IMG/VR virus record: IMGVR_UViG_3300049437_000015
Location: 1 to 47,608 of that record
Reading direction: 5' to 3' (one strand)
Origin: a virus
Taxonomy: Duplodnaviria; Caudoviricetes
DNA: 47,608 nt
Within the stretch, counting starts at the first letter, position 1, and each line of letters begins with the position of its first letter. The notes beneath the pieces are model-generated. The model was not told the DNA's origin. It saw only the letters and a list, made by a program, of their open reading frames with translations, and did not search any database. Below, one piece after another: positions 21,226 through 46,698 of this stretch. Position numbers and translations under genes: made by a program.

Positions 21226-21909
21226 TTACTTCTTTCGGCCGTCGATCCACTTGCGGTCGGACTCGCTCAGTTGTTCGATTGGGATGCTGGCCGTCTTGCC
21301 GTTCTTCTTTTTCAGCTTCACAACGTTATTTGTGACGCCAGCGAATTTCGCCTCTACCTCAAAATTGCCGGTCGCATCTTTCCATGTTCTCCATTTGGCA
21401 TTCTCTTCCTCGGCTAGTTTATCGAGCTTCTTTTTTCTCGCCTCTTCCTTGGCTTTCTTGGCATCTTGTTCGATCTTCTTTTCATCAATCGCAACAAGCC
21501 GCGGAATGGTTTTCGAGCTTCCCATCGCCGTGGTGTATTTCTTTGATCCGTCAACCTTGAATGGTACTTTCAGGTTGACCGTGAAATCGTCGCCGTCGGA
21601 AAGACCCTTTGTCGAATAGCCTTCGATCCAGAGCGCGTGCGATCGGTGGTTAACTTCAACGTCAACAATCATATTCTCGGCGTCGATAATCTGAATGACG
21701 CGAGCGCCGTGAACATAACCGACGACTCCATCATCCGCCGTGATGTATTTTCCGCCGATATCGTCCCAGTAAAATCGCGGGTATTTCAGCTTTGGTTCAG
21801 GCTTATAATTACCAGTCCCCAAACCCTGGATTGCGTGGGGCGAAAAAGTTCCCTGCCCAAACGCACTACTGGAAACCATCGCACCGATGAGAAAAATTGA
21901 AAAACGCAT
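21226..21909 (-). CDS. Secreted protein with C-terminal SHD1 (SLA1 homology domain 1); moron
   Basis: Signal peptide MRFSIFLIGAMVSSSAFG; WRTWKDATGNFEVEAKF...VKLKKKNG...IPIEQLSESDRKWI; GGAGG SD on the minus strand. Confidence 0.8.
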   Translation of the reverse strand: MRFSIFLIGAMVSSSAFGQGTFSPHAIQGLGTGNYKPEPKLKYPRFYWDDIGGKYITADDGVVGYVHGARVIQIIDAENMIVDVEVNHRSHALWIEGYSTKGLSDGDDFTVNLKVPFKVDGSKKYTTAMGSSKTIPRLVAIDEKKIEQDAKKAKEEARKKKLDKLAEEENAKWRTWKDATGNFEVEAKFAGVTNNVVKLKKKNGKTASIPIEQLSESDRKWIDGRKK

Positions 21910-22042
21910 GATCTACCTCCGCTCCTCACCCTACCCTCAATCCTCGATTCCTTCAATCACCAATTCGGGTTATTGTGGTTTACCGAAAATACCACCTTTG
22001 GGCTTCATTTCAAAATATTCCGAAATAATTATCGAAATGCTG

Positions 22043-22070
22043 TTGACATGCCGATAAATAGCTGTAGAAT
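22043..22070 (+). promoter_or_regulatory. Sigma70-type promoter
   Basis: TTGACA-N16-TAGAAT in AT-rich intergenic DNA. Confidence 0.7.
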
Positions 22071-22148: not shown

Positions 22149-22454
22149 ATGAAGATTTGCATTACCGAACAAAACCACCGAACTGGAAAGACGCGTGAAA
22201 TTTGCGTCATTGACCACACCGACACATGTGACGCGCTTAATGCGGTCGCCTTGCCGGACTGGACTACCGGATGTCCGATTGACAAAGGAGCGGACGGAAG
22301 CGGATTTATTGCCGACCCCGACGACGACCAACACATCATCAGCGCGGACGTTATGCATGACTGCTTCACGGATAAATGCGAATGCGACGAATGTAAACGA
22401 AGTCAATCGATGACCGGCGAAGAGATGGACTACATGGAATCATACGACGAATAG
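22149..22454 (+). CDS. Acidic Cys/His-containing hypothetical protein
   Basis: AGGAG SD; first gene after promoter. Confidence 0.65.
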   Translation: MKICITEQNHRTGKTREICVIDHTDTCDALNAVALPDWTTGCPIDKGADGSGFIADPDDDQHIISADVMHDCFTDKCECDECKRSQSMTGEEMDYMESYDE

Positions 22455-22533
22455 CCGCACTCCTCTCCTCGGCGGGAGCGACTAATCACCGCTCGGATAC
22501 ACACCGCCGGGGAGAGCCTTTCAAAAAACGACC

Positions 22534-22704
22534 ATGAAGAAACCAAAACGCGGCGCGCCTCGAAAATCCGAAGAGGCCCGCAAATCGAAGCAAATTACCG
22601 TAAAGCTCACGCCGGCCGATCACGCCGAGATTACCCGGCTGGCTGTCGAATCGCGGCTGACCGTGACCGATTACCTGACGCGGCGGGGGCTGGGGATTGA
22701 TTAG
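22534..22704 (+). CDS. Ribbon-helix-helix DNA-binding protein (MobC/CopG-like), 56 aa, not in ORF track
   Basis: MKKPKRGAPRKSEEARKSKQITVKLTPADHAEITRLAVESRLTVTDYLTRRGLGID: ITVKL strand followed by two helices. Confidence 0.7.
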   Translation: MKKPKRGAPRKSEEARKSKQITVKLTPADHAEITRLAVESRLTVTDYLTRRGLGID

Positions 22705-22767
22705 GTTGTGTTTTGTACAGTTTGTGGTTTACCGAAAGAATATTTTTCAAATATTTGGGAATTCCTA

Positions 22768-22795
22768 TTGACGGAATTCCGACATAGGGTATATT
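22768..22795 (+). promoter_or_regulatory. Sigma70-type early promoter with two GGAATTCC palindromes around the -35
   Basis: TTGACG-N16-TATATT; GGAATTCC at 22758-22765 and 22773-22780. Confidence 0.65.
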
Positions 22796-22801
22796 CTTAA
22801 A

Positions 22802-23215
22802 ACATCGTCGAAAAGCTCCCTAAAAGGTTCGAGTCCTTGTCGGGGAGCTTTCGGCGGACTTGTGAAAGCCCGCCTTGCGAATAGTGGCGGGTGGTGACGG
22901 TTATAAGGGAGTTTCCCGAAGGCAGTCACGGCGGGCGCGTTTCCGTTTTGTAAACACCCGTCACTTTATTTTGTTTTTTGCGAAGTCCCGAGCGATGGAA
23001 GCACGGGCCAAGCCTTTACAAGCTTGCAAACGCATTCAGGCCGACTCTTTGGCCGACCCGGATGCAAACCGGAACTTACACGTTGCAAGAAAGCGACACG
23101 CTCAGCGTGCGCGACAATGGAATGCGACGTGCCCATGCAGGATACGGCGGCATGATGACGCTGGACAGAATAGCACGAGCTATACTTGATATAGCAAGAG
23201 CTTGTCGGGCATTTC
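22802..23215 (+). ncRNA. Putative structured ncRNA/leader upstream of the recombinase
   Basis: Many nested complementary segments read by eye (see findings); no convincing protein-like ORF. Confidence 0.5.
22824..22848 (+). other. tRNA 3'-end-like sequence (Asn-like), candidate attP core
   Basis: AAGG-TTCGAGT-CCTT T-arm followed by G-TCGGGGA-G-C; about 380 bp upstream of a tyrosine recombinase. Confidence 0.5.
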
Positions 23216-23227
23216 AAGATTTACATC

Positions 23228-24100
23228 ATGCTGCTTGCCGATATCTTCCAACAGTATTATCTGTTGGAACACCCCGAAATTGCGCGGGGCACCGTGCAAA
23301 ATATCAACGCCTCGATTCGCGCTTACTCGCGATTCCTGGGCCGCGATGCTACATTGACGGACTTCTCGAAGAAATCGCTTTACGACTTTATGGCATGGAT
23401 GTCCGAGCTTGGCTATGCGCCGAAGTCGATCAACAACAAGCGCGGCGATTTGATAACGCTCTGGTACTCCGCTCACGACGAAGGCATGATCGGGCCGGTG
23501 CCGCGAATCAGAAAGCGGAAGGAACCGAAAAGACTGCCGGTGGTATGGACGCTGGACGAGATTCGGAGAATCTACGCGGCCACGGATGGGGCCGTCGGCA
23601 GTTATCGCGGCGTCTCAAAGAAGCTTATCGGCAAGCTAGCAATCTCGATTCTTTGGGACACGGGCTGCCGAGTCGGAACGCTCCGAAAGGCGAAGCTGGC
23701 CGATGTAAATCTATCGACCGGCGCGTGGTTCGTTCCGGCAGAAAACTTGAAGGGATCGCCTGCGGATCGCATCTTTCGCTTGCACCCGAACACGATTGCA
23801 ATTCTCAAGGAAACGCTGGCCGTGAAACGCGAACGACTTGTTCCGTTGCCGCTGGACAAGAACACGATGTACGAATGGGCGAAGAATCTCTTGACGCGAG
23901 CCGACTTACCGCACGACAGACTCAGGAAATTTCATTGCATTCGACGCACGGCGGAAACACAAGCCGCGGCAAAGATGGGCATCGGATGGGCGGCGGCAGC
24001 GATTGGCCACACGGAAGAGGTTGCAAGGAAGTATTACGTCAACCCGCTCTACCTCGATTCACCGAATTTGATCGACGCTCTTCCTCGGCTAACCGATTAG
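23228..24100 (+). CDS. int: Tyrosine recombinase/integrase
   Basis: Catalytic set intact: GCRVG (R), ENLKG (K), FHCIRR (HxxR), IGHT (H), KYY (Y); N-terminal SAM-like core-binding region. Confidence 0.9.
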   Translation: MLLADIFQQYYLLEHPEIARGTVQNINASIRAYSRFLGRDATLTDFSKKSLYDFMAWMSELGYAPKSINNKRGDLITLWYSAHDEGMIGPVPRIRKRKEPKRLPVVWTLDEIRRIYAATDGAVGSYRGVSKKLIGKLAISILWDTGCRVGTLRKAKLADVNLSTGAWFVPAENLKGSPADRIFRLHPNTIAILKETLAVKRERLVPLPLDKNTMYEWAKNLLTRADLPHDRLRKFHCIRRTAETQAAAKMGIGWAAAAIGHTEEVARKYYVNPLYLDSPNLIDALPRLTD

Positions 24101-24145
24101 CTCTAGCCGATCTTCCACGTTGCCTTGGCGGGCTTTTTGTGGAAC

Positions 24146-24184
24146 CGCCCCGCGCCGCACTTCGCGGCCGGGGCTTCTTTTTTT
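24146..24184 (+). terminator. Rho-independent terminator after the recombinase
   Basis: GCCCC..GCCGC/GCGGC..GGGGC stem followed by TTCTTTTTTT. Confidence 0.7.
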
Positions 24185-27240: not shown

Positions 27241-27477
27241 ATGCTCGTACTTGGTCGGCAAATCGATCAATCGATTCTTATTGGAAAAGATGTAGTTATT
27301 CGCGTGGTCAGCATCCACGGAAATCACGTTCACCTTGGTATCGACGCGCCGAAAGATGTCGAGATACTTCGGCCGGACGCGATTGTGCGAACGCGGATAC
27401 TTACAGCGGCGGCCGATGGAAAACTTGCCAAGTGCGAGAAAGACCTAGACGATGCCGAGCAGTTGGCGCAGATTTAA
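27241..27477 (+). CDS. csrA: Carbon storage regulator CsrA/RsmA homolog
   Basis: MLVLGRQIDQSILIGKDVVIRVVSIHGNHVHLGIDAPKDVEILR matches the CsrA consensus; AAGGA SD. Confidence 0.9.
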   Translation: MLVLGRQIDQSILIGKDVVIRVVSIHGNHVHLGIDAPKDVEILRPDAIVRTRILTAAADGKLAKCEKDLDDAEQLAQI

Positions 27478-32739: not shown

Positions 32740-32871
32740 GCGGCAGCGGCGTGGATGGATGACACGCAAATCGTGGATTGGGTCAAGCAAAGGCCGGAAG
32801 GCAAAGCTTATGCGGCGTTCGATTCGCCGACCACGAGGATAGCTAAGCCGGTTCGATTCCGGCCTGCCGCA
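32740..32871 (+). ncRNA. tRNA-like RNA with a second tRNA-like minihelix in place of the anticodon arm
   Basis: Acceptor GCGGCAG/CTGCCGC, D-arm GCGTG/CACGC, T-arm GCCGG-TTCGATT-CCGGC; inner TCGTGG/CCACGA with CGGCG-TTCGATT-CGCCG. Confidence 0.7.
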
Positions 32872-46241: not shown

Positions 46242-46490
46242 ATGCATTACCGAAACGGTCGCGAAGCGAAGAATGGCGACAAAATCGTAAAACTGGAAGG
46301 TGGCAAGGTCGTATCATTCGGCGTGCTTCACAGCGCGACCCATGGAAACGATTTTTGCAACGGCAACATCGCTGTCGTTCAGTCGGCAAACGATTATGCC
46401 TGCATGTGCGACTGCCTCCATATCGACGATTTGGCGGAATTGCTCAAAGAAAAGGGCCTCGATAAAAGACCAGCAGCCGTATCTGGTTAG
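46242..46490 (+). CDS. Hypothetical protein
   Basis: AAGGAG SD; MHYRNGREAKNGD...CNG...CLH.DD. Confidence 0.7.
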   Translation: MHYRNGREAKNGDKIVKLEGGKVVSFGVLHSATHGNDFCNGNIAVVQSANDYACMCDCLHIDDLAELLKEKGLDKRPAAVSG

Positions 46491-46566
46491 GCGCAAAGCC
46501 TTTACTGTCCCCACCGCCCGGAGATCATGGACGATTGCAGTCAGGATGACACGGGCGGTACTTTGA

Positions 46567-46655
46567 GTCACCTTAGCTCAATGGTAGAGCGAGCGTTAAA
46601 GTAGGCCGAAATCGAAAAGGAACGCTAGATCATGGTTCGACTCCATGAGGTGGCT
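46567..46655 (+). tRNA. tRNA-like gene with canonical acceptor, D and T arms but an expanded anticodon loop (identity undetermined)
   Basis: GTCACCT/AGGTGGC, TA, GCTC-AATGGTA-GAGC, AGCGT/ACGCT with 25-nt loop, CATGG-TTCGACT-CCATG; no encoded CCA. Confidence 0.75.
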
Positions 46656-46698
46656 TTGCAAGAAATATAAATGGCCGGGTAGTCTAAGCGAGGTGGCT

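Follow-up and report, generated by a model that had tools for sequence, protein, structure and literature searches.

Directly upstream of the phage integrase gene int, the stretch 22802-23227 reproduces a tRNA-Asn 3′ end without a mismatch within its first 55 nt. This copy is probably the phage attachment site, and the remainder is likely to be the 5′ leader of the int mRNA. On balance the evidence favours an attP followed by an int leader that carries a terminator and an RNA switch coupled to recombination. Taken as a whole, the locus is likely to be an attP with a probably regulatory int leader, and a variant of known recombination-coupled control rather than an RNA-guided recombinase.

Layout of the locus

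The window, meaning the whole stretch of DNA analysed, is a complete virus record of 47.6 kb whose genes include those for terminase, capsid, CsrA, an SHD1-domain protein and recombination proteins. The host may be a planctomycete, to judge from a typical gene content. The structured region lies between a gene for a ribbon-helix-helix protein and the tyrosine recombinase gene int (Table 1), and the elements follow from left to right as promoter consensus P2, tRNA-Asn 3′ end, leader, int and terminator. Among the loci inspected, only this phage has promoter, att, leader and int aligned in one line. A reading made earlier from the sequence only (the sequence-only reading) had described the region as one large multibranch RNA. 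Its folding does exceed chance, but it is not a single RNA domain and it begins with the end of a tRNA.

Several neighbouring elements are recorded here in their own right. The only clear minus-strand gene (21226-21909) lies just left of the att region and encodes a signal-peptide-like protein with an SHD1 domain, a possible lysogenic cargo. A 13-bp inverted repeat (22463-22516) separates a 101-aa ORF from the ribbon-helix-helix gene. Further tRNA-like T-loop elements occur in early regions, in the window at 32850-32860 and 46566-46656, and downstream of int in the related loci L003, L010 and L012; none of these has an Rfam match. A tRNA-Thr called in the window has an unusual anticodon and length.

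Table 1. Positions of the features of the int locus and of the phage csrA-like gene in the window.
Feature	Position	Strand	Basis and remarks
Promoter-like site P1	22043..22070	+	11/12 consensus; 16-nt upstream repeat common to P1 and P2
Ribbon-helix-helix protein, 56 aa, candidate repressor	22534..22704	+	Pfam NikA-like, E 3.7e-8, over cut-off; putative repressor role
Palindrome around -35 box of P2, candidate operator	22752..22786	.	14-nt arms, 86% complementary; putative function
Promoter-like site P2, across attP from int	22768..22795	+	10/12 consensus; start probably near 22802
Phage-only left arm, segment 1	22805..22827	+	mirrors tRNA-derived right arm; pairs with 22835-22857
Likely attP core	22824..22855	+	tRNA-Asn 3′ end, T arm onwards, and about 7 nt past it
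T loop, putative crossover region	22828-22834	+	
Hairpin 2:3	22853..22874	+	segment 3 (22868-22874) alternatively pairs with 22886-22892 or 22930-22936; prefix folds
Three-way junction with 11-bp closing stem, then U tract; candidate terminator	22883..22979	+	probability 0.97-0.99 for RNA ending at 22970
Small-hairpin cluster (domain 2 core)	23039..23109	+	soil relative X11 changes 1/31 stem and 8/38 loop/linker positions (Fisher p 0.03)
Strand pairing over int start codon (23224-23234)	23147..23157	+	probability 0.81 in long transcripts
Palindrome with -10-like hexamer, candidate int-proximal promoter or operator	23179..23195	+	no good -35
Second exact 9-nt copy of right att half-site, candidate Int site	23201..23209	+	19 nt before ATG; only two exact copies in genome
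int, 290-aa tyrosine recombinase, core-binding and catalytic domains only	23228..24100	+	conserved R148, K175, H236, R239, H261, Y270; sole Phage_integrase match of record
Hairpin and intrinsic terminator after int	24113..24182	+	terminator scan
CsrA-like RNA-binding protein of the phage, possible regulator of int leaders	27241..27477	+	Pfam CsrA E 7.7e-19; PHROG CsrA-like; putative link to int

The tRNA-Asn 3′ end as a probable attachment site

The T-loop hairpin picked out by the sequence-only reading is real (T stem probability 0.95-0.99), but it is part of a tRNA-Asn 3′ end, an identity which that reading missed. A 23-nt pattern taken from the hairpin matches 10 viral records, which comprise seven whole tRNA genes (three Asn and four Gln), two tRNA-Asn 3′ halves of other phages and a second record of this phage. 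Identity to the tRNA-Asn genes of records L046 and L049 is 27/27. An 11-nt match to the same two records after the tRNA (E 2.7) was taken as chance.

Public sequencing runs that hold the phage point to the same block. In a contig of run X8, which contains part of this phage, the 5′ part of a tRNA-Asn continues into 22824-22854 with no differences (31/31). Summed depth jumps at the core bin to 158.6 against about 20 in run X2, which is possibly the origin of this record, and to 94.6 against about 7 in run X3. The phage contigs of X2 stop at 22853 and resume at 22826, and other contigs diverge at 22854 or 22855 into unrelated flanks. The contig graphs branch at both ends of the core; the assembly word is no longer than the core, which leaves the attL and attR junctions unphased. 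By these comparisons the block begins four bases ahead of the T loop and continues for about seven bases after the tRNA, and 22824-22855 is very probably attP. A likely attP/Int pair for tRNA-Asn is defined here for an uncultured host group. For scans of this kind the lesson is that a T-loop hairpin beside an integrase should be treated as an attachment site until shown otherwise.

Two other phages (L047 and L051) carry a tRNA-Asn 3′ half that starts from the anticodon arm, together with an integrase frame of 422-423 aa. It is likely that the same tRNA is used there by a different integrase type at another sub-site.

The integrase and its relatives

The sequence-only reading had noted that Int lacks an obvious arm-binding domain, and both Pfam and the structure-model matches confirm this. 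Its catalytic residues R-K-H-R-H-Y are all intact. The Pfam SAM-like domain starts at residue 4, and the structure model (mean pLDDT 84) matches XerA and residues 75-356 of lambda Int with no extra domain. Brujita Int is among the fold matches at rank 20, with 14% identity in the structural alignment.

Two sets of relatives were compared. The first set holds 22 distinct int loci, the phage itself and one duplicate having been dropped, and several of these have less than 500 nt of upstream sequence. In 8 of the 22 the 1.5 kb preceding int contain a tRNA-Leu (six 3′ halves and two whole genes), and in those first-set relatives that were inspected by eye a promoter sits between att and int. For the held-out set 68 loci were fetched, 59 of them with 200 nt upstream and 45 non-redundant. 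Ends of tRNA-Ser or tRNA-Ala lie 83-430 nt upstream in 13/45, as counted with patterns written after inspection and with one doubtful edge match dropped, and the tRNA piece is oriented away from int. A complete circular relative has a single tyrosine recombinase and a tRNA half. The tRNA ends upstream of many relatives and the arm-less fold together therefore identify the family as arm-less phage integrases that target tRNA genes, a kind already described though in the minority.

The closest relative of int (L003, 71% identical) lies in a sequence that is cut 10 nt before its match, and the record has neither att nor leader. Further Int relatives share 58-61% identity. Two tyrosine recombinases of the Int family stand one behind the other in the L003 record (L003:1-1845, G001); a terminator separates them, and their identities to Int are 71% and 41%. 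An 82-aa frame of the window with no family (46242-46490) is 70% identical to a frame just 3′ of these two integrases in G001. Among 206 genomes around G004, Int relatives were found in G004 only, and GenBank phages gave one weak match.

Promoters and terminators

A promoter upstream of the region had been proposed, and the consensus match P2 bears this out. P2 starts about 22 nt before the attP core and appears to face int across att, with no consensus match of at least 9/12 starting between att and 23220. The 16-nt repeat common to P1 and P2 has exact copies at 21973 and 22722, giving two promoter modules (21973-22070 and 22722-22795). In relatives, too, a small HTH gene is seen by eye to be flanked by a pair of promoters. 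The motif of the palindrome at 23179 recurs in 11 of 19 first-set leaders, where it was chosen after inspection, and in 8/45 held-out leaders against 3.4 expected (p 0.03).

The terminator after int folds at probability 1.0 unaided. Its two-hairpin layout and terminator stem are also found 3′ of the 71%-identical int of L003, which suggests that int is a single-gene transcription unit. An antiterminator for this terminator was considered and rejected.

Folding of the region

The folding energy of the 426 nt is -158.2 kcal/mol, with z -2.81, and none of 100 shuffles is equally good. With a second shuffler the region has z -3.5, against a range of -2.55 to +1.49 for 25 segments of equal length from elsewhere in the genome, and z -2.69 when the att repeat is left out. 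The comparison with shuffles, which the sequence-only reading had set as a check, thus comes out better than chance and below all 25 control windows. The helix strands that it listed are all found in place, but its dense nested pairing holds only in part. In RNA spanning 22802-23227 the local helices are well determined, with pair probabilities of 0.95-0.99 for the T stem, 0.91 for the long closing stem, 0.99 for the GTGAC stem, 1.0 for GGCC, 0.98 for CCGG and 0.99 for CACGC (the last three being domain-2 hairpins). The outer nest of domain 2 and the GTTGC hairpin are poorly determined over the same span (0.0 for CCCGA/TCGGG, 0.3 for ATGG/GCACG, 0.5 for CGCATTC/GAATGCG and 0.01 for GTTGC). Two further helices depend on context. 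The GGCGG hairpin has a probability of 0.01 in 22802-23227 and 0.5-1.0 without the phage arm, and the GCTATA helix rises from 0.38 in that span to 0.96 once the int start is included.

The only relative that covers the RNA is X11, from a soil run, with two contigs of low depth (3.3-3.6). The region has no credible ORF, as had been proposed, because three 1-nt indels in X11 would shift its three overlapping frames. Between 22754 and 22935 X11 differs at one position. At a loose end, by eye, one loop is changed along with two bases in the 3′ strand of the long stem, both of which keep their pairs. No helix of the terminated fold shows a two-sided change. Within 23051-23119 changes fall at 1/31 stem positions against 8/38 loop or linker positions of the four small hairpins (p 0.03). 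In the CGCATTC helix the 3′ strand is changed at 23122 and 23126, and the opposite strand lies outside the X11 coverage. A change at 22941 matches that at 23122 in an alternative helix of the read-through fold (22941-22947/23116-23122; probability 0.58; by eye), and this helix also loses a pair at 23117. The change at 23226 breaks one pair of the helix over the start codon. This pattern of changes, in a single relative, therefore supports the local small hairpins and not the long nested helices. The small domain-2 hairpins most likely belong to the same leader and supply partners for the strands freed in the read-through fold. The one RNA run, X8, covers the tRNA piece and 22400-22440 only, leaving the leader and int outside, and so speaks neither for nor against a transcript; the coverage of runs X9, X10 and X14 also falls outside the leader.

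Searches for homologous RNAs returned the phage itself only. This holds for blastn and nhmmer against up to 127 loci, for pattern scans, and for covariance models (two against 95 sources and one against 44 more), which were built on one sequence each and have low sensitivity. The best blastn match of the RNA elsewhere falls in coding DNA. Rfam gave no match at the gathering score in the window, where five chance hits fell below the cut-off at E<=10, and only tRNAs in 15 and 20 other loci. An alignment of nine leaders has 31% column identity and no invariant column. The search of regions upstream of Int homologues with covariance models, as the sequence-only reading had advised, thus yielded no homologous RNA in 94 other loci, most of them with Int relatives. 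A ligand riboswitch aptamer conserved across homologous leaders was not found by Rfam, alignment, nhmmer or the single-sequence models, at their low sensitivity. Two distant int leaders (L010:2600-2700 and L012:2620-2700) share sequence and a hairpin motif of their own, and a pattern scan for this motif matched only the phage of L012, in two records.

A predicted read-through/termination switch

A GGCGG run is present three times, as are strands complementary to it, and together they make up a chain of helices that are alternatives to one another. About the T loop the two arms are symmetric at 15/22 positions, against 9/22 in the tRNA-Asn gene. By eye the mirror helix contains three T-G juxtapositions and one bulge, which suit RNA pairing. 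The candidate terminator is atypical in that it encloses a branched loop of 61 nt, and a simple terminator scan misses it.

Int would cross over in the T loop and rebuild the host tRNA gene. The order P2, attP, leader, int is such that integration would therefore replace the phage promoter with that of the host tRNA; P2 and the mirror arm would be carried to the other prophage end, and the leader would end up behind the host tRNA gene. In the free phage, segment 1 is predicted to capture segment 2, freeing segment 3 to pair with the terminator stem on its 5′ side. That stem, which precedes the U tract, would then fail and some transcripts would reach int. In the prophage, with no segment 1, hairpin 2:3 and the terminator would form, and read-through from the tRNA would be halted before int. 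The 11-bp helix over the ATG, which a weak int-proximal promoter may bypass, would further damp the translation of long transcripts.

In the predicted energies the terminated fold leads the read-through fold by 3.5 kcal/mol with the arm and by 10.4 kcal/mol without it, so that removal of the arm shifts the predicted balance by about 7 kcal/mol, with no difference at length 22970. Before the 3′ strand of the terminator has been made, the read-through fold leads by 4.1 kcal/mol with the arm. In the tRNA-led folds used for comparison the host tRNA was taken from record L049 rather than from the true host. The probability of the terminator stem is then 0.61 for attP-led against 0.98 for tRNA-led RNA at 23100, and 0.13 against 0.55 at 23260. 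For RNA ending at 22970, the decision point, the values are 0.97 and 0.98, and for RNA ending at 22950 the antiterminator helix 3:4a has 0.65 with attP and 0.59 with the tRNA. The switch would need to be kinetic and partial because the folds are nearly equal at these two lengths, and it is a prediction that depends on kinetics. The helix over the ATG has p 0.013 against shuffles. As a trait of the family it was ruled out, only 1/57 homologous leaders reaching p<=0.05.

Three hypotheses had been offered for the RNA, namely attenuator or riboswitch-like control of int, an immunity RNA, and a guide or cofactor for the recombinase. The attenuator is the best supported of the three, but its trigger looks like recombination at attP and not a ligand. 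In its full form attP would separate the first strand of the antiterminator chain from its remaining strands, and integration would cut the switch and turn read-through into termination. This recombination-switched attenuator is put forward tentatively, as a possible but rather doubtful account.

Alternative explanations

The attP assignment could be right and the mirror arm could still consist of DNA half-sites for the arm-less Int, with the leader acting as an insulating terminator plus an ordinary structured 5′ UTR and int controlled by the promoter swap and by DNA-bound proteins. This is plausible, if short of probable, and DNA half-sites account for the symmetry nearly as well as an RNA switch does. 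The symmetry of 15/22 is in register, as DNA sites would show, and the equilibrium folds at 22970 are alike for attP and tRNA-led RNA. The gene int lies between the half-site copy at 23201 and another, with one mismatch, at 24124; for the former p is 0.007 if the half-site is considered and 0.09 if every 9-mer of the core is. Upstream of the tRNA-Leu att sites of L004, L006 and L026 additional copies of the core half-site were seen by eye, but such copies are not significant in 13 homologous loci, and as a family trait they were ruled out, none being seen there. The symmetric stretch also exceeds in length the core-binding repeats of mv4, which are 7 bp (bioRxiv 10.1101/2023.11.06.565760). The T-G juxtapositions and the bulge in the mirror helix, together with the chain of alternatives formed by the three GGCGG runs and their three complementary strands, likewise speak for the RNA.

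It is unlikely that the leader is mainly controlled by CsrA, with the host or phage protein binding GGA motifs and setting the output of int. The case for it rests on the motif CANGGA, which fits the SELEX consensus reported in PMC7652899 and was counted in the 200 nt upstream of int in L004-L027 and L067-L130. It occurs in 15/19 first-set leaders, where the pattern was chosen after inspection, and in 28/45 held-out leaders against 11 expected (0/500 shuffles), with no enrichment on the reverse strand. In another comparison 25/45 held-out leaders contain it against 38/191 other genes. A csrA gene is present in this phage, in 4/8 mostly partial records with this int family and in G001, and CsrA is common in Planctomycetota (PMC13443453). 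However, the leader of this phage is devoid of CANGGA and has three ANGGA only, one of which is changed in X11. Placement of GGA in loops is not clear either (7/31 against 31/218). The motif may instead be a DNA operator, because for 9/31 of its held-out occurrences a TTG precedes it by 11-12 nt, the arrangement of a promoter spacer. From its sequence context CANGGA may be either a CsrA site on RNA or a site on DNA. In one subclade it lies between TTG and palindrome, about 35-60 nt before int, like an operator in a promoter spacer.

About equally unlikely is a reading of the terminated product of domain 1 as a stable antisense immunity RNA of the P4 CI or P1 C4 type. Domain 1 is a three-way junction with a long closing stem, and its product would be made in the lysogen from the tRNA promoter. 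Segment 3 is antisense to 24127-24136 just after int, and this duplex is among the best 10 of 5265 windows. The post-int terminator, however, needs no help to fold. There is no Rfam match and no relevant C4 or CI hit at E<=10, and ten-nt antisense matches are not in excess (7 against 5.8+-3.4 for random stretches). The ribbon-helix-helix gene and the palindrome at the promoter mean that a candidate protein repressor with an operator is available in place of an immunity RNA.

A guide or cofactor RNA for the recombinase, as in the IS110 bridge RNAs, is very improbable, for although the region is non-coding, structured and adjoins an arm-less recombinase, and the loops vary in X11 while the small stems persist, the 14 loops and linkers share at most 6 nt with the att site, Int has core-binding and catalytic domains only and no RNA-binding or RuvC-like domain, blastn, nhmmer and the single-sequence models find no homologous RNA in the Int-family loci, att lies only about 100 nt from int in many relatives, and arm-less phage integrases with no known RNA exist (PMC8138268).

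Comparison with known systems

A search of the literature on structured RNA at tyrosine recombinases, on CsrA with phage integrases and on control across att, in which few subscription journals were covered, returned nothing on this system. In lambda, sib lies 3′ of int and lowers int expression in the free phage through RNA decay. The preferred reading, attP with a switched int leader, resembles sib in that recombination would attach an RNA element across att to the int message or sever it from it. It differs in that the element here precedes int and in the free phage is predicted to increase read-through. If true, the locus would be a 5′ mirror image of the sib retroregulation named in PMC6379469, and an arm-less integrase would obtain direction by expression alone. 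The int leaders of the family may then also answer to phage-encoded CsrA.

The probable attachment site is close in kind to that of Ms6, whose attP has a 26-bp core starting just before the tRNA T loop (PMC1762012). Both have a core of about 26-32 bp that runs from just before the T loop to the end of the tRNA beside a tyrosine integrase gene. In this phage, by contrast, tRNA-Asn is targeted, about 22 bp of the left arm are a mirror of the right and the core lies 22 nt inside the int transcript. With Pcirc and Pint of intB13 in ICEclc the locus has in common a promoter across att that faces int only in the circular form (PMC5812530), a feature known here from the DNA alone. It also shares the tRNA 3′ end as target and, possibly, a second int-proximal promoter. 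It differs in being a phage with an arm-less 290-aa Int and in the predicted chain of terminator and antiterminator helices crossing the att core, which the passages of PMC5812530 compared here do not describe.

The structured RNAs of other systems resemble this leader more loosely. A structured non-coding stretch beside a recombinase is shared with the IS110 bridge RNAs (PMC11208158), but this phage has no RuvC-DEDD plus Tnp recombinase, by the definition given there, and no loops matching target or donor. A structured non-coding RNA in a phage leader is shared with P4 CI and P1 C4 (PMC3632133), but here there is no Rfam match and no excess of antisense targets.

Arm-less phage integrases are a minority (27 against 410 phages; PMC8138268), and Int shares with their IntBrujita subgroup a make-up of core-binding and catalytic domains only. 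As in integration-dependent immunity (PMC3694055), att lies inside a transcription unit and integration would rewire expression. Here, however, att is in a non-coding leader and not in a repressor gene, and identity to Brujita Int in the structural alignment is 14%. Arm-less integrases lack the sites that normally set direction. The locus offers a small candidate answer to how their prophages stay put, with a likely att site inside the int leader where recombination is predicted to rewire both the promoter and the RNA fold.
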